A DNA stretch of 32,000 bases from Candidatus Saccharimonadota bacterium (GTDB lineage Bacteria; Bacteroidota; Bacteroidia; Cytophagales; Amoebophilaceae): positions 570,001 to 602,000 of the forward strand of contig NZ_CP022339.1 of the NCBI RefSeq assembly GCF_003351905.1, given 5' to 3'. Of this stretch, positions 195 to 20,218 are shown in pieces. Position 1 is the stretch's first letter. Each line of letters starts with the position of its first letter. The notes below the pieces were generated by a model, which had not been told where the DNA came from, did no database searches, and saw only the letters and a program-made list of their open reading frames with translations. Both the position numbers and the translations under genes were made by a program.

Positions 195-314
195 TGTTTT
201 AAGTTTAAAGGTTACTTCTAGAGGAATAAAATCCAAATGAATTTAGACGAACTATGTTAATAAGCAAATTTTTTGTGATAAAAATATTTCGTTGTTAAGG
301 TTTATTTTGATTGA

Positions 315-362
315 GATGTGGATTTATGGATAACTTGATAAAGTTATCCATAAGTCCACATC
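315..362. repeat. 48-nt near-perfect palindrome (22-nt arms, 4-nt loop) with core TGGATAACTT/AAGTTATCCA
   Basis: GATGTGGATTTATGGATAACTT gata AAGTTATCCATAAGTCCACATC, with one arm mismatch. The arm is about 19/22 identical to an arm of the palindrome at 14583-14631. Confidence 0.85.
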
Positions 363-438
363 ATAACTGTTATATTTTTAATTTATATTCCTCATCAAAT
401 AATAAATTGTAAATTATTATCTTTCCTCTTTAGGCAGA

Positions 439-3840: not shown

Positions 3841-4150
3841 GTCCAATAAAAGTGTCTATGCACGGACATGGGTTCCTAAGGTATTTTTACTTTTTTCTTG
3901 ATAAGAAAGTAACCAAAAATCAAGTCCTCGGAAAAAAATCGCTAAGATTGTCATCTGACAGATGGAAAAACAGAAAGGCCCCCAAAGGGGGCTACTCTAT
4001 AAATATAACCTTTTTCCTTATCTAGTAGCATAGCAGGATTGAAAGTTTTCTAAAAATTGCTCCCATAGCTTGAGCATATCATGGGTCTGAGTGTATTGCA
4101 TGAAATATTTCATCATGCGAAACGGTTGCTTCTGCTTGATTGGATCATCT
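3841..4150 (-). repeat. Dispersed repeat copy A (decayed footprint of the SSS/HD-family C-terminal linker plus about 125-nt non-coding core)
   Basis: 3841-3964 aligns by eye at about 70-75% with 18549-18672. 4100-4150 (catcatgcgaaacggttgcttctgcttg) aligns with 18741-18770 and with the coding sequence at 15530-15590 of the 1200-aa gene. Confidence 0.6.
3966..3993 (-). terminator. Probable intrinsic terminator (reverse strand)
   Basis: The reverse strand reads GCCCCC ttt GGGGGC (6-bp GC stem) followed by CTTTCTGTTTTT. It lies downstream of the 4264-7632 gene. Confidence 0.5.
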
Positions 4151-11334: not shown

Positions 11335-11387
11335 GGCATCTGTTCCAATCACTGGTTTTTTGTCCACTTTTTTATCAAGAAAAAAGC
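11335..11387 (+). repeat. Dispersed repeat copy C, left part (interrupted by IS110)
   Basis: ggcatctgttccaatcactggttttttgtccacttttttatcaagaaaaaag matches the reverse strand of 18600-18722, with an internal deletion of about 65 nt. Homology stops exactly at 11387. Confidence 0.6.
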
Positions 11388-11397
11388 TATTATCTTA

Positions 11398-12098
11398 CTA
11401 TGCAAGTTTTTTAGTCATTTTGTACTCGTTTTTGATACTTTTGACGAAGCTTCTTTTTTGTTGTATAAGCTTATGCGCCAGCTCTAGGAGCTTCCTCATA
11501 CATGCTACGATAGCCACTTTTTTAGGCTTATATTTACCTACTAATCTATCATAGCATTCTTTTAAATATAGGAACCACTTTTTCCCTGCTAATACAGCCA
11601 TATACAGTGCATCTCGTGGTATTTTCCTTCCTCCCCTAATAAATCTTTTTCCCTGTTTTTTCCCACTATCAGCCGCATATGGTGCTATACCTACTAAAGC
11701 TGATAGTTGATTACTACTGTAGCTTCTATCACCTAATTCAGGTAAAAAACTGACTAATTTAGTGGCTAAACATTTCCCGATTCCTGGAATGGTTTCTAGT
11801 ATATTAGCCTTTTCGTCTAGATCCTTATCAGTAGTTATGGTTTTATTTAACGCTTTATCAATAATTTTTATTTCTTTTTCTAAAAAATCGATATGCCTTT
11901 CTATGCTTTCTTTATCTATATTAGTCTGGCTATGGTGTAACCGTTTCTTTTCATTGCTTAATGTAGCTACCAGCTCTTCTCTTCTTTGTTGTTGCCTTTT
12001 AAGCCGATCTGTTGTAATATAATAGCTGTAATTAGCTTTCAATCCCCTTTCCTGTCCATAGCGAGCTAGTTTAAAAGGTAGAGTAGAGCACTGGCGCG
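11398..12098 (-). CDS. IS110-family transposase, 3' exon (downstream of group II intron)
   Basis: The C-terminal block IPGIGKCLATKL...LVGIAPYAADSGKKQGKRFIRGGRKIPRDALYMAVLAG...KPKKVAIVACMRKLLE is Transposase_20-like. The frame stays open upstream of the track TTG start back to the intron 3' end (ARQCSTLPFKLARYGQERGLKANY). Confidence 0.75.
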
Positions 12099-12192
12099 GT
12101 GAAGTATAGGACCAGGTTTATCCGTGTCCATCGTTTCCGATTTCGTGCCTAAATAACCCAATCTCTCTTTCCCGTTTCCAGCACCCCCTCGT

Positions 12193-12226
12193 CGCACCGT
12201 ACGTGAGGTTTTCCCTCATACGGCGC
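12193..12226 (-). ncRNA. Group II intron domain V
   Basis: The reverse strand, GCGCCGUAUGAGGGAAAACCUCACGUACGGUGCG, folds as the canonical two-helix hairpin with an AC bulge and a GAAA-type loop. It matches the consensus ..GCCGUAU....GAAA....ACGUACGG... Confidence 0.85.
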
Positions 12227-12249
12227 ACGGATCGTCTTCTTCGTCTGCA

Positions 12250-13548
12250 TTACGTCCATCTGTATCGCACCCGATAAGCTCCTACATTGACTAATTTGTA
12301 CACTTTGTGGAGCTTCTCGTCGGGGAGTTCCTTATACCCGTTCTTCCTACTCCCTTTCTTTTTCATGATAAATCTTCTCAGACGCCTGTTTGCATGCCCT
12401 TGTACTTTCCTAAATCTCCTAGAACTGGCCGTGTGACGGTAATACTCCGTCCACCCCAGTAAGGATGCGTTTAAGTCTTTAACAATAGTTTCAACACTTT
12501 CGTGCAACCGGTTCCGATAGGTCAATTGCGTGACTTTCTTAATAATCCGCTTGATTGCATCAGGTGTAGGATACATATGGGTAACGGGTTTCTGATATCT
12601 TGGCGAGTATCCCCTTTTAAAGGCATACCCTAAGAAATTGAAACCTTCTTCGGCCGTGGTCATTCGACTCTTTTCTTCATTGATCGAAAGGCCCAAGCGT
12701 TGCAGATACCCACATAAAATACCCAAAATCTTCTCTACCGGTTTATTCGACACTATCACGAGATCGTCCGCATAGCGGACAATCTGTGCATTCCACCCAT
12801 TCCTTTCGGTCATCCGCTTGACCCATACTGTGTCTAGCAGATTCAGGTATATATTAGAAAGTAAGGGCGAAATGGGGGACCCTTGAGGGGATCCTTGTCG
12901 AGTAGCAACTTCTTCGCCTTTAAGGACTCCTGAGCGAAGCCAGGCTTGTATTAACTTTAGAACATACCTATCACTGATTCGCTTTTGAATGACTTTCATA
13001 AGCTTATCGTGTGGGATTGAGTCAAAGTATCGCTTCAAATCAATATCTAAAACTTGGGTGAGCCCGTAATTAAGCCATTTATATATTGATAGACTTGCAT
13101 GGACTGCGGATCGTTTAGGTCGAAACCCAAATGAGCATTCTTGGAAGTCTGCTTCAAAAATTGGCTCTATAACAAGACGGGTTGCAGTTTGTACTAAGCG
13201 GTCCTTAATCGTGGGCACTCCCAAGATTCTTATTCCTCCTTTCGGTTTGGGTATTTCCACGCGCTTTGTCTTATTGCTTCGGTAGCTTCCTGATTCCAGT
13301 TCTTTTTGAACTTGTCCAAGAAACGCTTCTTCCCCTTGTTCTTTGATTTGTTCTATTGTTATTCCATCTATGCCTGGTGCCCCGTGATTTGCACAAACCT
13401 GTTTCCATGAACAGACCAGTACGTCCAATCTATATATTTTGTCATGAAGGGTGTAGAAGCTGCGTTTAGGATTAGACTTAGCAGATCGATAAAGTTCTCG
13501 CTGCAGTTCTCGGACGCTTTGTGCCATGTGGTTACCTTGCGGAATCAT
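12250..13548 (-). CDS. Group II intron-encoded reverse transcriptase/maturase (no obvious En domain)
   Basis: APGIDGITIE (RT0/1), RRVEIPKPKGGIRILGVPTIKDRLVQ (RT2), FGFRPKRSAVHA (RT3), VLDIDLKRYFDSIPH (RT4), VRYADDLVIV (RT5 YADD), then FLGY and GW..YYR of the X/maturase domain. The ORF is 432 aa. Confidence 0.92.
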   Translation of the reverse strand: MIPQGNHMAQSVRELQRELYRSAKSNPKRSFYTLHDKIYRLDVLVCSWKQVCANHGAPGIDGITIEQIKEQGEEAFLGQVQKELESGSYRSNKTKRVEIPKPKGGIRILGVPTIKDRLVQTATRLVIEPIFEADFQECSFGFRPKRSAVHASLSIYKWLNYGLTQVLDIDLKRYFDSIPHDKLMKVIQKRISDRYVLKLIQAWLRSGVLKGEEVATRQGSPQGSPISPLLSNIYLNLLDTVWVKRMTERNGWNAQIVRYADDLVIVSNKPVEKILGILCGYLQRLGLSINEEKSRMTTAEEGFNFLGYAFKRGYSPRYQKPVTHMYPTPDAIKRIIKKVTQLTYRNRLHESVETIVKDLNASLLGWTEYYRHTASSRRFRKVQGHANRRLRRFIMKKKGSRKNGYKELPDEKLHKVYKLVNVGAYRVRYRWT

Positions 13549-14074
13549 GGTATCTTTCCCTGTTTTGAAAACATGACGAAACTGAAGATCCTTCGCTCCG
13601 GTAAGGTTTTGTTGTCCTTGCCATCTTCACTACTACTATCTTCCCGACTTCCTGCACAGCATCGGAACGAACTTCGACTTGCGCCTTATATCCTTCCTTA
13701 CTCTTGGAACTTAAAGACCGTGCAGGATCTCCCACGTTTCTCCTCCTTTCTTTCCTACGTGCCGCCCCTGCTACGCCGGGAGATAAGTGACGGTTATTGA
13801 CCTGTTATCTTTCCGTCACTTTACAGCTTTCGCCCACCAGACGAGAGGCTCAGCATCTCCAATTCCCAGATTTCTCTGGTAAGACCTTCACGGCGCTACA
13901 TATAGGTTCCTTGCGTACGGCCCGCAGTTTGCGTAGCTCCTTGTACAGAGCCGTCGTCGAGTGGCTTCATCTACAAAAATTACTCTTTATAGATGCACTC
14001 CTCGCTACCTGGCCAACAGGCCTATTGCCAGGGTGGGACTTGCACCCACTAGAAAGGAGGCCTTCGTGGCACGC

Positions 14075-14372
14075 CATCGTGTTTATCCGTTTTACAGTGG
14101 TCTAGAGATTTACTAAATGAACTAAAAGTATATGTATTCACTTGATGTATGTGTACATTAGCGGCATACAATTTCTCACAAATGGCTCTTTCATATCCCC
14201 CAGTTGGTTCACATACTATAATTTTAACAGCTACTTGATCTAAATAATCTATAAGTTCCTTATGGCCCTGCTCATCGTTACGAAACCTTTTATATACAGA
14301 TTTAGCCTCTTGACTATAGAAACATGCATCCAGCCATGTTTTCCCTATATCTAAACCAAGTATTCTGTTCAT
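14075..14372 (-). CDS. IS110-family transposase, 5' exon (upstream of group II intron)
   Basis: MNRILGLDIGKTWLD is the DEDD first-Asp motif (GLDIGK), followed by IVCEPTGGYE and CKTDKHD. The track ORF runs on to 14049 only because it reads into the intron. Confidence 0.75.
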
Positions 14373-14712
14373 TTTATATTATATTTATTTATATTTCCTT
14401 ATTCTTATCGTACAAGACAGTTGTAGGCAACTTCTTCTGCTATTTGTTCAAAGAAAATAAAGGTAAGCAGGTACTTAAGCTTTTTTCGACTATTAACTAT
14501 ATAAAGTCCAGTGGGATACAAGTAACCTGCTACCTTTAAAATACAATCTTTTTAAATCTTAACTACATCTAGAATCTTTCTTAAGCTGTGTTTTTGATGG
14601 ATAACTAAAGTTATCCACAAAACCACAGCTTACCTACTACTATTTTTTACTATAAATTGAATATGATTCAAGCTACATCTATAGCTATATCTATCTAGTG
14701 CTAAGATATAAG
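14373..14712 (-). ncRNA. Candidate IS110 bridge RNA region (non-coding left end)
   Basis: This is the 340-nt non-coding left end upstream of the recombinase. 14510-14521 (AGTGGGATACAA) is identical to the flank 14711-14722. 14478-14487 is the reverse complement of the other junction at 11380-11389. The two segments are 22 nt apart around a short stem. A strong palindrome lies at 14583-14631. Confidence 0.4.
14583..14631. repeat. Imperfect palindrome of about 48 nt, same family as 315-362
   Basis: AAGCTGTGTTTTTGATGGATAACT aa AGTTATCCACAAAACCACAGCTT. It shares the TGGATAACT/AGTTATCCA core with 315-362. Confidence 0.85.
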
Positions 14713-14760
14713 TGGGATACAACTCATTATTAATCAGTATCGTGAACAGATACGAGTGAG
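14713..14760 (+). repeat. Dispersed repeat copy C, right part
   Basis: tgggatacaactcattattaatcagtatcgtgaacagatac aligns with the reverse strand of copy B (taaaaataaaactgccttaccaaccagtgtcgtgaagagacac), including the conserved hairpin. Confidence 0.55.
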
Positions 14761-14888: not shown

Positions 14889-17800
14889 TTACTTGTTTTT
14901 GTTAACTTTTCCTTTTTTTATGTTTACTGTATCCTTATCAATATCAATCTTTAGCGCCTCTTTAGCTGCATGTTCTAATGCAGTGCCTATCTCTGGACCT
15001 AAGTAAGTATGGGCTAACTTCACATCTATGTCTAAGGTTTCTTGCGCCATATGGTGCACCTCTGTTGGATGGATATAACTTGCCGCCTGGTGTAGGTCAT
15101 AGAGCCGCTCGGCTAGCTTAATAAAGAGTACAGAAAGCTGTATATGCTCTTCCTTAATCGCTTCTTTCAATCGATTTTGCACATAAAGCAAGGAAGGGTG
15201 GTCTAAGTCTTGGCGTTTGTCTATACTTATTACATTCAATACAAAGGCATAAACCCCTAAGTTATAATGTTCCTTGACATAAGAAAGTGGTAGGCAGGTA
15301 TGGCGCACCAGTTCATAGAGCAAAGCAGCATAAATTACTTTAGGGGAGTGAAAGACCCATTCTACTATTAACGTGGTAATCCCTACCGCACGTACATAAA
15401 ACAATTGACCCGAGGCATGCCGTTTAAAGCCAAAATGTTTCCGTAGTAATAAAAGCAAACCTGAAATCGTACCTAGGTCAATAGGATCGGATCGATGAGA
15501 AGACTGGCAGATATAGTCATGGAACTGCATTAAGGCCATCATGGAATCAGCTTGCTCTTTAGGGGTAACAGGGGTTTCTGAGGTTAAGCAATCTAAAGGT
15601 AGCTTAGCCGTCATCTTACTCAGCATATCCGTCACATCATTAGGCAGTACCAGTAGCATAGTGGGTTGCTGCTTGTCATCGCATATTTCCAAATGGCCAT
15701 AGTGAGCCCCAACAATACTGGATATGGTTTCTTGTTGGAGGTCTATAGATGGTGGCACTGCTTGTTTCCCTGGATCGTCTATAGCATCTATCCCATCATC
15801 ATAGATACCCTGCACTTTAGGCAATGCCTCAGGGGAAGTAGTAGCTTGACTGAATACTAGGGCAGTCGCTTGAAAAAGCATATATACAGGACAGCTGCTG
15901 TCAATAGGGTCAGCTTGCTTAAACTGCAACGTGGTGCCATGCAGTTGTACCTTTACAATGGGTACAGTATTATCCTCTAGCTTACCAATACGTAAAACAG
16001 CTTGTACCAGCAAATAGACGATTTGGTTGATATCGCATACTATATGCGGGCATGGACCCCCATTAGGATGCATTATCTTTTCTACCAGCAGTCTAGGTGG
16101 ATCAATCACCTCTTGGGATAATGCCAACTCTACCTTACGCATCAACTGATCGAAGGTAATTTGAGCGGGTTGTAGTAGGGCATGCTTTTTAGCTTTTGCT
16201 CTCCTATTAAAATAGGCCACCCAATCATAAAGCTTATTGATAATACTTTGAAAATCTTGCTTATAAAGTGGTACGTTGCTATCTAAAAAAGAGATGGATT
16301 CCTCAATTTTCCCTATTACTTGCGTTAAAATGGCGCCATAGCCTTTGGCTTGACTCATCGTAGTGGTGGGCACCATGGCTGAATCGTAAAGAGAAGCTTT
16401 GAGTTTGCGATCCTTTGCAATCTTTTCTTGATTTTTTAGGTAAAGAATTTGAGCAATATAGCGATCTTGTTTGATTTTAAAGAAAATAATAATAGCGAAT
16501 AGGAGTAGTAGACTCACTATACATAGCGGTAATAAAGAAGATAACAGCGGAAAGCAGGGACCAGTAGCAATAGGATAAATGGATATGAGTAAGGTGGTTG
16601 TTGCCACTCCTATTCCTAGATAAAGGGGTAATCCCCATAAGATGACACCACAATGGGCTAAAGACAAAGAAGCCGAAAAAATCGGTTCTGTTAGATACCA
16701 CCAGGTACCAAGCAAATTCAAAGGAAGATAAACGGCTAATCCTACTAGCCAACATAGACCAATAAACCAACTGGGAATATCCCTTATCCTTTGGAAGATA
16801 TCATAGAGAAATGGGTAGCCTAAATAACAAGCCGCTCCAAATAGTTGCAGTATAAGCCAGCAGACATGATGCGCAATAGGCGCTATAAAATAAGCCAGTA
16901 AACTAGTCACGGCTATATAAATGCCTACACATATGATCATAGTATGGTTGGGTATCAGGTTAGCCAAAGTGATTTTTCTATTGGCCCAACCATTTTTAAT
17001 CGCTTCTTTTCGTTCCGCCTGCTTGCGTGCATGCGCTTGTTGCATTTGTTTAAAATCGGGGTCTGGCCCTACCCAACCAGCCTCTTTTGGCTGTTTGAAT
17101 AAATAATGGGCCGCTAGCATAGCTAAGCCATTGGCTAACATGGAAGGGAAGGCGCCATTTATTCCCATCTCTGGGTCAAGTGGCTCAATCCATTTGTTCC
17201 AAGCTAAAATAGTTAGTGCACCTGTAGCCATACCGATTAAAGCAGTACGAGTGGTGCCCCGAAAACCGAAAATAGCCAATATAAAGGGCGCTGTTATAAC
17301 AGGGATAGCAGAATCAAGAACCCAATATGTTAATTTTAACAGATCTTGACAATAAAAAGCTAGCATCATAGCTAATAAGCCCAACACTAGCGTGGTCCAT
17401 CTAGCTATTTTAAGCTGATGCGCATCATCAATTTGTTTTTCCTTGTGTATACTTTGCAATATATCATAGCTAATCATAATAGAACAAGCATTTAAGCAAG
17501 AGTCAGCTGTAGACATCGCCATAGCGAGTAAACTAACGGCCAAAAATCCTTTAAAAAAAGGGGACATATGAGTCATAATGTACCCCCAAACCTCTTCTTT
17601 AGACAAGTGTGGTGCACCTACAAAAACAAATAGGCCAATTAGAATAATAAAAGAAGCTATAATAAGATTAAAAACAGTAGCATATGAAAAAACCTTTTGG
17701 GCCTGAATGGTACCAGAAGACATGTATACCCGCTGCATAAGTTGGGGTTGGACTATATAGGATACTAAGACAGCCAATATGAGGGAAAACAAAGCTATTA

Positions 17801-18491
17801 ACTTAGTATCAAAATGGAATAGGGTACTAAACTGAAATTTAGCTTGGTTGTGCAGTATAGGAATGATGGTTGATACTGGTTTACCTGCTTTTAGAAATAT
17901 AAACCAAGTCAAAAGAGGAATAATAATGGAAAAGGTTAGAAACTGTAGTATATCTGTAAAGGTAACGGCACGGACCCCCCCAAATGTTGAATAGAAAACA
18001 AGGAATAAGCTGGCGAAGATAGGTACTAAATAGGGGTTATCTACGTGCACACACATAGTAATGGATCGAGACATTACAGTAATCTGCATGGTAATTATAA
18101 TGATACAACGACAAGTACCAACCAAAGCCGTCACGATTCTTGCATATCTGCCATAGACATGACCCATCGTCTGTGCGATAGAGAAGTGTTGCATAAATGG
18201 ACCCATACGTAAGGCTAACTTACCAATAGTCCATAAACCAAAACAATCTAAAAATACAAGAACTATCCACCATAAGCCATATTCATAGACGCACTCTACG
18301 TCACACATTAATGTGCAGCCAGCATATAAAGTGGCCAATACCGTAGCAACTAAAGTAGCGGTAGCAAACTGTTTATTCCCTACTGCATATTCTCGAAAAG
18401 TGGTTTTTTTTCTACTAAAGTAAATGCCTACAACCAAGGTTAGCAATAAAAAAATGGCCACTATAAATAGGGAGATGTTTAAACAGAGCAT
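14889..18491 (-). CDS. Giant polytopic protein: SSS (sodium:solute symporter)-like domain + second TM block + degenerate histidine-kinase-like module + degenerate RelA/SpoT-type HD domain
   Basis: The ORF is 1200 aa. It carries the SSS hallmark FGGVRAVTFTDILQF and about 13 TM segments in the first 480 aa or so, then 6-7 further TM segments and a coiled-coil. A CA-like region follows (IVCDINQIVYLLVQAVLRIG ... IVGAHYGHLEI...TMLLVLP). The C-terminus, SGQLFYVRAVG...AALLYELVRHT...IKLAERLYDLHQ, aligns to the HD_4 motifs with HP, HD, ED and N replaced. Confidence 0.75.
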   Translation of the reverse strand: MLCLNISLFIVAIFLLLTLVVGIYFSRKKTTFREYAVGNKQFATATLVATVLATLYAGCTLMCDVECVYEYGLWWIVLVFLDCFGLWTIGKLALRMGPFMQHFSIAQTMGHVYGRYARIVTALVGTCRCIIIITMQITVMSRSITMCVHVDNPYLVPIFASLFLVFYSTFGGVRAVTFTDILQFLTFSIIIPLLTWFIFLKAGKPVSTIIPILHNQAKFQFSTLFHFDTKLIALFSLILAVLVSYIVQPQLMQRVYMSSGTIQAQKVFSYATVFNLIIASFIILIGLFVFVGAPHLSKEEVWGYIMTHMSPFFKGFLAVSLLAMAMSTADSCLNACSIMISYDILQSIHKEKQIDDAHQLKIARWTTLVLGLLAMMLAFYCQDLLKLTYWVLDSAIPVITAPFILAIFGFRGTTRTALIGMATGALTILAWNKWIEPLDPEMGINGAFPSMLANGLAMLAAHYLFKQPKEAGWVGPDPDFKQMQQAHARKQAERKEAIKNGWANRKITLANLIPNHTMIICVGIYIAVTSLLAYFIAPIAHHVCWLILQLFGAACYLGYPFLYDIFQRIRDIPSWFIGLCWLVGLAVYLPLNLLGTWWYLTEPIFSASLSLAHCGVILWGLPLYLGIGVATTTLLISIYPIATGPCFPLLSSLLPLCIVSLLLLFAIIIFFKIKQDRYIAQILYLKNQEKIAKDRKLKASLYDSAMVPTTTMSQAKGYGAILTQVIGKIEESISFLDSNVPLYKQDFQSIINKLYDWVAYFNRRAKAKKHALLQPAQITFDQLMRKVELALSQEVIDPPRLLVEKIMHPNGGPCPHIVCDINQIVYLLVQAVLRIGKLEDNTVPIVKVQLHGTTLQFKQADPIDSSCPVYMLFQATALVFSQATTSPEALPKVQGIYDDGIDAIDDPGKQAVPPSIDLQQETISSIVGAHYGHLEICDDKQQPTMLLVLPNDVTDMLSKMTAKLPLDCLTSETPVTPKEQADSMMALMQFHDYICQSSHRSDPIDLGTISGLLLLLRKHFGFKRHASGQLFYVRAVGITTLIVEWVFHSPKVIYAALLYELVRHTCLPLSYVKEHYNLGVYAFVLNVISIDKRQDLDHPSLLYVQNRLKEAIKEEHIQLSVLFIKLAERLYDLHQAASYIHPTEVHHMAQETLDIDVKLAHTYLGPEIGTALEHAAKEALKIDIDKDTVNIKKGKVNKNK

Positions 18492-18548: not shown

Positions 18549-18787
18549 TCAAAATAAGTGTCTCTTCACGACACTGGTTGGTAAGGCAGTTTTATTTTTA
18601 CTTCATTCTTGATAAAAAAGTGGATAAAAAATGCAGCCCTCGGCAAAAGCCGCTGAAAGTATCATTTTACAGGGGCGTTGTTCTTTTAACGTAAAAAACC
18701 AGTGACTTGCACAGATACCATAACTTAATATGGAATAGCATCATAGCATCCGGTTGTTGCTTAGGGGTAACAGGGTAAGGTAAGCCA
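18549..18787 (-). pseudogene. Dispersed repeat copy B: relic of the deleted C-terminal part of the truncated SSS paralog
   Basis: The reverse strand reads YPVTPKQQPDAMMLFHIKLWY..., compared with TPVTPKEQADSMMALMQFHDY in the 1200-aa paralog. It then decays into the non-coding core shared with 3841-3964. Confidence 0.6.
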
Positions 18788-20218
18788 TTATAGATAGTTT
18801 GGTGATTTGGCACAACTTAACTTGTATTTTCCTACTATTTTAAGTAGATAGTGGGCGGTTATCATAGTCAAGCCATTGGCTACCATAGCAATAAAAGAGC
18901 CGTCTACCCCTGTTGATGGTTCAACCCATTTGTTCCAAGCTAAAATAGTGAGTACACCTGATGCCATACCGATTAAAGCCGTATGGGATGTGCCTCGAAA
19001 GCCAAAAACAGCTAAGATAAATGGGGCAACGGTAATAGGTAGATAAAGCCCAAGATTTAATTTGAGCAAATCCAACAAATTGGTATAGTAAAAGGTTAAT
19101 ACCATAGCAAATAGCCCTATAAAAATGGACGCAATTCTTGCTAACTCGAGCTGATAAGGATAGGTTTTTGTACTACGTATAGATGCCAGTATATCATGAC
19201 TCACTGCAATAGCGCCTGAGTGTAAACAGGAGTCAGCAGTAGACATAGACATAGCTAGTAAACTAACAGAAAGAAACCCTTTAAGCACAGGTGGAATGTC
19301 CGTCATGATATAGTCCCAAACCTTGACTACTGAAACCTCTGGTGTACCTACAAAAATAAGTAATCCAATCAAGCATATAACCATATTGATGCATATCCCA
19401 AAAAAACCAGCATACCGGAAAACATTCCTAGCCTGTGTGGGGCCAGAAGACATATACACCCTATGCACAATAGGCGCGTCTATATAAGATGCAAGGATAG
19501 ATAAAGCCAGCGCAACCATGGCCACTAGATTCATATCGTAATGGAATATGGTACTGAGTTGAAATGTATCGTGTTCCTGTAAAAGTGGAAAAATTTCTAA
19601 AAATGGTTTGCCCAACTTCATAAATATAAACCAAGAAAAAAAAGGTAGAATAACAGCAAAAGTCATAAATTGTACTACATCGGTAAATACAACTGTACGA
19701 ATACCTCCAAAAGAGGAATAGAAAATCAGGGCTAAAGTAGAACAGACCGCAATGAACTGAGGATCAACTGTATGTATGCATATGCGAATCGATGACGCCA
19801 TTACATGCACTTGCATCGCAACCATTGTAACGGAAGAACCGATACTGCAAAGCGCCACAATAACCCTGGGGCACTTGCCATAGACGCTACCTATCGTTTC
19901 TGCCATAGAAAGATTTTGCATAAATGACCCCATACGTAGTGCCAACCCACTCACCACCCATAAGCCTAAGTCGCCTAAAATAACTATAATCATCCAATAA
20001 AGCCCAAGTGTATGAATCTGTTCTACATTACGGGCCAACCCACTTCCACTATAAGCAGTAGCCAATATGGTGGCTACCAAGGTAGCGGTAGCAAATTGTT
20101 TGTTCCCTATCGCATATTCTCGAAAGGTGGTTTTTTTTCTACTAAAGTGAATACCTACACCCAAGGTCAGTAATAAAAAAGCGGACAGTATACATACCGA
20201 GACATCAAAAGAGATCAT
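18788..20218 (-). CDS. SSS-like membrane protein, truncated tandem paralog of the 14889-18491 N-terminal domain
   Basis: The 476-aa ORF is collinear with residues 1 to about 470 of the 1200-aa protein (FSRKKTTFREYAIGNKQFATATLVAT, FGGIRTVVFTDVVQF, LIGMASGVLTILAWNKWVEP). It ends where the paralog continues. Confidence 0.75.
   Translation of the reverse strand: MISFDVSVCILSAFLLLTLGVGIHFSRKKTTFREYAIGNKQFATATLVATILATAYSGSGLARNVEQIHTLGLYWMIIVILGDLGLWVVSGLALRMGSFMQNLSMAETIGSVYGKCPRVIVALCSIGSSVTMVAMQVHVMASSIRICIHTVDPQFIAVCSTLALIFYSSFGGIRTVVFTDVVQFMTFAVILPFFSWFIFMKLGKPFLEIFPLLQEHDTFQLSTIFHYDMNLVAMVALALSILASYIDAPIVHRVYMSSGPTQARNVFRYAGFFGICINMVICLIGLLIFVGTPEVSVVKVWDYIMTDIPPVLKGFLSVSLLAMSMSTADSCLHSGAIAVSHDILASIRSTKTYPYQLELARIASIFIGLFAMVLTFYYTNLLDLLKLNLGLYLPITVAPFILAVFGFRGTSHTALIGMASGVLTILAWNKWVEPSTGVDGSFIAMVANGLTMITAHYLLKIVGKYKLSCAKSPNYL

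Follow-up and report, generated by a model that had tools for sequence, protein, structure and literature searches.

The stretch analysed here, referred to as the window, comprises 32,000 nucleotides of contig NZ_CP022339.1 (NCBI RefSeq assembly GCF_003351905.1, positions 570,001 to 602,000 of the forward strand), deposited as Candidatus Saccharimonadota bacterium and placed by GTDB within the Amoebophilaceae; all coordinates below are those of the window. On its minus strand, three genetic elements are nested within one another: a REP-like (repetitive extragenic palindrome-like) repeat harbors an insertion sequence (IS) of the IS110 family, i.e., the family of the RNA-guided, or bridge, recombinases, and the recombinase gene of this IS harbors, in turn, a group II intron. 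A previous reading of the same DNA, made by a model from the sequence alone (hereafter, the original prediction), had proposed this three-layer nest and had located the intron within the catalytic KTDK.DA motif of the recombinase, and both of these claims were upheld by our analysis. The limits it had assigned to the IS, 11388-14712, proved right to within a few bases, and were refined to 11385..14712 (minus strand) by aligning five intron-less relatives that have differing flanks. Without the intron, the IS measures ~1.33 kb.

The recombinase gene is encoded by two exons, both on the minus strand. Exon 1 (14075..14372; 99 codons and one additional nucleotide) starts with an open reading frame (ORF) at 14372 that reads MNRILGLDIGK and ends with KTDKHD followed by a G; this frame continues for 8 codons into the intron and then encounters a stop codon. 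Exon 2 (11398..12077; two nucleotides, 225 codons and a stop) begins with CT TTT AAA, i.e., (A)FK, and its open frame ends with the stop codon at 11398. The intron is thus inserted between bases 1 and 2 of the alanine codon that follows the last aspartate of the DEDD catalytic residues (GAT G|CT). When the exons are joined, they yield an ORF of 325 codons reading KTDKHD-A-FKLARYGQ, with all conserved residues present. The joined ORF matches the Pfam domains PF01548 (DEDD_Tnp_IS110, 2.8e-19) and PF02371 (Transposase_20, 2.1e-14), as well as the NCBIfam equivalog NF033542, "IS110 family RNA-guided transposase" (160.4 bits, cutoff 140), bearing out the claim that an IS110-family gene is split by the intron. 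Residues D8, E55, D96, D99 and S244 are invariant across 17 aligned sequences and also align with those of IS621; the first four are borne by exon 1, while S244 lies in exon 2 together with the Transposase_20 domain.

The boundaries of the intron could be deduced from relatives of the IS that do not carry it. The 5' junction had been correctly predicted, exon 1 ending at 14075 and the intron starting at 14074, yet the 3' junction had been placed 21 nt away from its real position (12099/12098 instead of 12078/12077), so that the intron occupies 12078..14074 of the minus strand and is 1997 nt long, not 1976 nt. A search for intron-less IS110 copies returned four metagenomic relatives (L002-L005, 75-79% nucleotide identity), all unbroken across 14075|12077 (at 807|808 in L002), and 16 intron-less protein homologues, in which the junction is the one obtained by joining 14075 to 12077 (KTDKHDAFKLARYG). 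The residues RQCSTLP, which would be retained if the intron ended at 12099, are absent from all 16 homologues in the alignment. Further copies of the intron were also sought and relatives were found in Caedibacter, in metagenomes and in other genomes. When the intron with 200-nt flanks served as a query, the introns of the amoeba symbiont Candidatus Caedibacter (Paracaedimonas) acanthamoebae, its nearest relatives, aligned at 83% nucleotide identity over query positions 201-2197, which correspond exactly to 14074..12078; in other hosts, too, the 21 nt in dispute belong to the intron and are conserved. Removing 12099-14074 does yield the 332-codon ORF that had been described, but the real spliced ORF has 325 codons. 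Since the two deletions are 21 nt apart in length, each preserves the frame, and because restoration of the frame is automatic for any precisely spliced intron, it does not constitute additional evidence.

The same intron was detected in a second data set. A contig of 1652 nt (L001, Logan SRR26730806) is 99.94% identical to window positions 13728-12077 and encodes an identical intron protein. It ends at 12077, a single base beyond the 3' end of the intron, as assemblies do where a repeat runs into several flanks, which suggests that the intron occupies several contexts. An identical intron protein was found only on this one 1.65-kb contig, and a look-up of the exon-2 ORF, for an identical intron-less allele or further copies, returned no database record.

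To characterize the intron RNA, we compared it to Rfam families and to its relatives. On the minus strand, the family group-II-D1D4-4 (RF02003) matches part of domain I at 13911..14051 (87.4 bits, E = 4e-18), and RF00029, which represents domains V and VI, matches 12078-12228 (46.7 bits, gathering threshold 40), confirming a group II intron with a domain V. The 5' end, GCGUG, is a one-base variant of GUGYG, and the 3' end is CUCUAC; in relatives, introns start at the same place with GUGUG (L008, L062, L065 and L072), GCGCG or GCGUG, the latter being found in relatives that reside at terminators. Domain V (D5; 12194..12226, minus strand), with a CGC triad at its base, forms 12 pairs in two helices, of which 97.5-100% of the cells are paired in ten relatives, with one compensatory pair. 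Domain VI (D6; 12078..12190, minus strand) forms 13 pairs, all of them 100% paired in the same ten relatives, and 6 of these are compensatory. Overall, 99.2% of D5/D6 cells were paired and 7 pairs exhibited changes on both sides, compared to 34-57% pairing when the partners were slid by 1-3 columns as a control. RNAalifold independently predicted the same helices.

The basal helix of D6, GAG-GGGGUGCUGG / CCAGUGCUCU-A-CUC(-UAC), contains the canonical bulged A at 12084, the seventh base from the 3' end at 12078, and carries at its tip an insertion of ~83 nt (12177-12095). This insertion is present in the core of the IS110-associated clade, and is absent from L070 and from the terminator-type relatives. 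It also contains the false 3' end: the segment CCTATACTTCAC, taken in the original prediction for an Ll.LtrB-like 3' end, lies within the insertion, and a cut at 12099 would fall inside a predicted helix. Introns of the B.c.I4 type, reportedly described by Stabell et al., carry a 3' extension downstream of domain VI and resemble the window intron in that additional sequence separates what looks like the 3' end of a D6 from the true splice site. In the window, however, this sequence sits inside D6 and not downstream of it, and a B.c.I4-like 3' extension was ruled out, as the basal helix encloses the extra sequence.

We next considered how the intron RNA pairs with its exons. By aligning domain I with that of relatives having other 5' exons, exon-binding site 1 (EBS1) was located in the loop that follows GAGCCU: CGUC at 13840..13843 (minus strand) pairs with the last bases of exon 1, GAUG at 14078-14075 (intron-binding site 1, IBS1), forming 4 bp, one of which is a G.U. 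The expected pairing between the intron and the proposed 5' exon is hence present and is supported by covariation: across 28 distinct relatives or loop types, pairing with exon bases -1 to -4 was seen at 104 of 112 positions, as compared to 48 +/- 5.5 when exons were shuffled, and none of 10,000 shuffles reached the observed value. EBS3 was assigned more tentatively, the sample being small, to the G of GUAG at 13771 (minus strand), which pairs with the C at 12077 (IBS3). This column covaries with the first base of the 3' exon, being U where that base is A (L010, L011, L025, L026 and L052), A where it is U (L030) and G where it is C, as in the IS110-associated clade. Two EBS2-like matches were treated as coincidence, i.e., GUCAUUC/GAAUGAC at -17..-11 in Caedibacter and UUAUCU/GGAUAA at -14..-9 in the window, because their registers differ and the bases involved belong to a stem in which three compensatory changes occur; nothing comparable was seen in L065 or L072.

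The intron encodes its own reverse transcriptase (RT)/maturase, as had been predicted. The 432-amino-acid ORF (12250..13548, minus strand) is intact, contains RVT_1 (3e-37) and GIIM (1.5e-14) domains and a YADD motif, and matches the equivalog TIGR04416, "group II intron RT/maturase", over its full length (375.7 bits, cutoff 300). Domain-profile scans matched no endonuclease-domain family in this protein. The prediction had further labeled the intron Ll.LtrB-like, i.e., class IIA, yet several lines of evidence place it elsewhere. Compared to proteins of solved structure, the intron protein scored highest with the RT of GsI-IIC (212 bits), followed by three RT/maturase entries that we take to be IIC (197, 183 and 181 bits), and lower with T.el4h (IIB, 151 bits) and LtrA (IIA, 112 bits). 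The same Rfam domain I family and the 5' sequence GCGUGCC occur in relatives from Bacillus and Paenibacillus located directly after terminator hairpins and T-runs. Moreover, the triad at the base of D5 is CGC and not AGC, a trait of IIC introns. These observations point to a class C (IIC)-like intron.

IIC introns habitually insert just downstream of a DNA hairpin, and this habit is not seen at the IS110 targets. No target hairpin was found at the IS110 sites, which fold at 0 to -3.4 kcal/mol (z of -1.1 or higher), whereas of the terminator targets of three relatives two fold at -14 and -16.8 kcal/mol (z of -6.5 and -8.4), the third (L032) being weaker (-7.9 kcal/mol, z = -1.1).

We also examined where relatives of the intron reside. 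Relatives whose proteins share 48-100% identity were found at the same Asp|Ala junction, GAYG|C, in IS110 genes whose mutual identity is only 23-55%. In total, 11 further copies lie at K-x-[DN]-x-x-D|A, and the clade spans a Bacteroidota endosymbiont, Alphaproteobacteria and metagenomes. Among the sites with a known 5' exon are KTNKNDCND|A (L007), KTNKNDAND|A (L008), KTNKNDRND|A (L062/63), NKSDKQD|A (L065), NKTDKID|A (L072) and VKTDKID|A-EWLAYLLRAGL (L070); three copies (L064, L066 and L067) were identified from exon 2 only, and the remaining two are L006 and a degenerate copy, L021/68 (GKTDRLV|A). Pfam IS110 domains were detected in six of the spliced or partial hosts (L008, L062, L064, L065, L066 and L070). 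The identity of the others is less firmly established: L072 falls just below the gathering threshold, L067 and L021/68 were recognized by the motif only, and L006 and L007 by a custom hidden Markov model. GA(U/C)G|C is common to all sites with a known 5' exon except L021/68 (GUCG|C), and the EBS1 loop contains CGUC throughout the clade. No intron relative was found on viral contigs, and on plasmids the only close relatives were those of two Caedibacter plasmids. In the deposited record of one of these (L142, CP008937.1 106029-112327), "hypothetical protein" is the label given to the intron protein and to both exons of the interrupted IS110 gene, so that the annotation does not reveal such composites.

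The identities of introns and hosts are decoupled. While the intron proteins are 84-100% identical, the recombinases that host them share 23-55% identity: L006 and L007 have identical intron proteins and exons 2 that are 27% identical, L008 and L062 compare at 97% versus 55%, and L064, L065 and L066 at 90-96% versus 24-28%. Simple co-descent of intron and host is therefore excluded, and vertical co-inheritance was ruled out on these grounds. A further copy was found outside IS110. On the Caedibacter chromosome (L009; CP008936, 811180-820478), the plasmid-type intron lies in frame within a gene for an RluA-family pseudouridine synthase, at KKNDSLD|A. The DNA of this site, AAAAATGATAGCCTTGATG|CT, resembles that of the IS110 target over an additional nine bases upstream, which suggests that recognition extends beyond the five paired bases; no consistent RNA partner was found for the upstream bases of the IS110 site. 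Of the 13 independent contexts, 12 correspond to one and the same IS110 codon; intergenic sites and other IS families are not represented. In a rough neighbor-joining tree (no support values), the IS110-associated introns cluster together.

A sister IIC-like clade (L013-L020, L023, L044, L079-L093 and L137-L141) was also observed, characterized by the 5' end GUGCGUCCUGAAAGA and an EBS1 loop containing ..CAUG... Its members almost always lie right after ...CATG|, with a -10-like TAnAnT usually located 6-9 nt upstream, as at CCTACACTCAGATGCATG| and GCTATAATGCCGCCCCATG|. Judging by these sites, insertion would seem to occur immediately behind the ATG of leaderless genes or at promoters.

The outer layers of the nest were delineated in a similar manner. 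In the five intron-less relatives with differing flanks, the left end of the IS corresponds to ...CCCA|CT|TATATCTTAG, with a CT core at 14712-14711, and the right end is TAAGATAATAG|CT|, with a CT core at 11386-11385. The 5' non-coding region of the IS (14373..14710, minus strand), in which no Rfam family was matched, contains a conserved long hairpin (14632-14582) and, downstream of it, a variable segment of 12 nt (14521-14510, TTGTATCCCACT) whose sequence recurs exactly at 14722-14711, in the left flank and the adjoining core. The five relatives behave alike: in each, the variable segment agrees with the left flank of that same element where it adjoins the CT core. Such flank matching is the behavior expected of the target guide of a bridge RNA (PMC11208160), and the segment is, based on this match, a candidate target guide within a candidate bridge RNA region. 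A solitary copy of the long hairpin, ~75% identical, lies at 311-379 (minus strand), with no IS adjoining it.

The target of the IS is itself repeated, in line with the claim that the composite sits inside a third repeat. The left half of the REP-like repeat (14713..14753, minus strand) contains the hairpin GTATC..GATAC, and the right half (TTTTTCTTGATAAAAAAGTGGACAAAAAA...) occupies 11343..11384 (minus strand), as identified by repeat search and reconstruction of the empty site. Joining the two flanks produces an empty site that matches 18558..18631 (plus strand; 78% identity over 74 nt) across the insertion point, and 3889..3933 (plus strand; 80% identity over 45 nt, an inverted-repeat match). 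The latter match takes in the core CT and the single base preceding it, and runs on into the right half. Each of the empty copies contains a short hairpin (GTGTC..GACAC), in which the differences from one copy to the other are compensatory, and the left flanks of these copies differ from the guide segment of the IS at 3-5 positions. The flanks of two intron-less relatives, L002 and L005, are similar to the left half of the target repeat.

Taken together, we regard it as highly probable that the locus is a nest of a repeat, an IS110 element and a sense-oriented, IIC-like intron from a lineage that appears to target the IS110 motif. According to this model, a REP-like intergenic repeat would have been invaded by an IS110-family element of the bridge-recombinase type, whose recombinase gene would then have been invaded, in sense orientation, by a mobile IIC-like intron. 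The intron RNA would read only GAYG|C, EBS1 (CGUC) pairing with GA(U/C)G and the G of EBS3 with the C of IBS3. An unspliced message would stop 8 codons into the intron and give rise to a 107-amino-acid fragment, while protein-assisted splicing at 14075|12077, with A12084 as the branch point, would give rise to the 325-amino-acid recombinase. The predicted ligated exons read ...CACGATG|CTTTTAAA... (in longer form, ...AAACACGATG|CTTTTAAACTAGC). We infer that the intron is spliced in vivo, and it is reasonable to suppose that recombinase output would depend on this splicing, for which RmInt1 in ISRm2011-2 offers a precedent. The lineage itself would appear to home actively to the IS110 motif by means of a determinant beyond the five paired bases, probably contacts made by protein to the upstream K-x-D/N codons.

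Several observations weigh against this view. The window contains a single copy of the intron and a single copy of the IS. A 4-bp EBS1-IBS1 pairing that includes a G.U is too little to explain site specificity, and a consistent EBS2-like pairing was sought among the relatives and not found. In the neighbor-joining tree, a lineage that is not associated with IS110 (L010/L011) falls inside the IS110-associated cluster. Some hosts are decayed: in L006 the junction is one base off, or short (GAT|...|CCAGCG), and L007 is chimeric, its exon 2 changing both frame and identity. Lastly, the junction codon of L021 is GTC where GAC would be expected, a change that replaces the aspartate with valine and creates a mismatch to EBS1.

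Such decay bears on the alternative that fares best, namely that the intron, the IS or both are inactive and that the composite is a decaying relic without any expression logic. Endosymbiont genomes are rich in dead IS elements, several related host copies have decayed, and in a related Cardinium strain none of 9 IS110 copies is intact (PMC9769881). In the window, however, both exons, the intron protein (with its YADD motif and full TIGR04416 coverage) and every RNA motif that was checked are intact, and 1652 nt of the intron recur in the second data set at 99.94% identity, on a contig whose end suggests several contexts. We therefore view the relic as unlikely, though it deserves to be kept in mind. 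Less probable still is survivorship, in which any GAYG|C would be open to insertion but copies would persist solely in harmless, mobile, sense-transcribed IS110 genes. An RNA pairing of only 5 nt, with neither a hairpin nor an EBS2, would be in keeping with it, but it accords poorly with the concentration of 12 of the 13 independent contexts on a single IS110 codon and with the lack of any in intergenic DNA or in a different IS family; the sole exception resembles the IS110 site at nine additional bases upstream, an indication that these bases are recognized. It is very improbable that a single ancestral IS110 element gained the intron once and that the two diverged together, their position reflecting descent: the homologous codon and the same orientation of all copies would follow from such an event, yet intron and host divergence are decoupled (100% versus 27% for L006/L007), intron-less close relatives of the window IS exist (72-74% amino acid identity), and the same Caedibacter intron is also present in a non-IS gene at a look-alike site. 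Finally, a 1976-nt, Ll.LtrB-like intron spanning 12099..14074, ending with CCTATACTTCAC and giving a 332-amino-acid KTDKHD-ARQCSTLPFK product, has next to no likelihood despite its in-frame deletion and the resemblance of its terminal 12-mer to the Ll.LtrB 3' end, as it is contradicted by the intron-less homologues and IS DNA, by the conservation of the 21 nt in other hosts and by the D6 helix with its compensatory changes and bulged A.

Group II introns nested within IS elements are well known, and as a single locus the one described here is ordinary. RmInt1, the closest precedent, is a class D (IIB3) intron equipped with all three of EBS1, EBS2 and EBS3 and residing in an IS of another family. 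Its homing site lies within the transposase gene of ISRm2011-2 in Sinorhizobium meliloti, and its splicing was proposed to limit the spread of the IS (PMC4238363, PMC3035460). As in the window, the natural site of a mobile group II intron is thus inside an IS transposase gene; unlike RmInt1, the window intron is IIC-like with a 4-bp EBS1, its host encodes an IS110 DEDD/bridge recombinase, and its site is a catalytic-motif codon common to the whole IS110 family. With canonical IIC introns (of the GsI-IIC, O. iheyensis and B. halodurans type), the window intron shares the nearest RT, the Rfam domain I family, the position of the EBS1 loop, the 5' sequence GCGUGCC, a short IBS1 plus a tentative IBS3, the lack of a matched endonuclease domain and the CGC triad of D5. 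However, canonical IIC sites follow terminator or attC hairpins, whereas the lineage of the window resides inside an ORF without a hairpin and carries the ~83-nt insertion at the D6 tip. The IIC-attC introns of integrons (PMC3001079) likewise form a IIC sub-lineage specialized on the site of another mobile system, but their targets are structured recombination sites outside coding sequence, while the window intron targets a coding motif devoid of structure, and its removal reconstitutes a protein. As for the host, the spliced protein aligns with IS621 (PMC11208160, PMC11208158) over 304 residues (E = 8e-28), including the KTDxxDA motif (KTDTVDA in IS621), and the window IS shares with IS621/IS110 bridge recombinases CT cores at both ends and a variable non-coding segment that matches the left flank. 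Unlike in IS621, the recombinase ORF of the window is interrupted by an intron, and its bridge RNA is known as a candidate region only.

What is new is the apparent clade-wide homing of a hairpin-free, IIC-type intron to the catalytic codon of IS110, for which no description was found in the literature searched, the Zimmerly intron database and paywalled papers being outside the search. We would give roughly even chances to the broader proposition that this is an undescribed IIC sub-lineage that has dispensed with hairpin targeting, homes to the DNA of the last Asp-Ala of the IS110 DEDD motif (GAYG|C plus upstream K-x-D/N codons), moves in this way between IS110 elements of 23-55% identity across phyla and imposes a splicing gate on an RNA-guided recombinase. 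A clade that tracks one catalytic codon of a transposase family with ~5 nt of RNA pairing and no hairpin offers a clean natural case for studying how IIC-type introns switch target recognition, and which part of the ribonucleoprotein reads the upstream bases. Bridge recombinases are now of biotechnological interest, and a self-removing interruption of their active site suggests a natural layer of control, as well as a design for splicing-gated recombinase expression. Such loci are annotated as hypothetical proteins or as split or pseudogenized transposases, and IS110 elements scored as "not intact" may include functional, intron-bearing ones.

With respect to the host, the ComF protein adjacent to the nest shares 71-76% identity with named Cardinium proteins, and by this measure the genome is that of a Cardinium-like endosymbiont. 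The nearest named relatives of the IS are IS110 elements of Rickettsia and Tisiphia. Elsewhere in the window, two pairs of direct repeats, 17181-17291/18917-19027 and 18319-18492/20046-20219, show 80-83% identity and are both spaced ~1.73 kb apart. The 1200-amino-acid ORF at 14889-18491 and the next ORF, at 18788-20218, are probably paralogous in their N-terminal parts.

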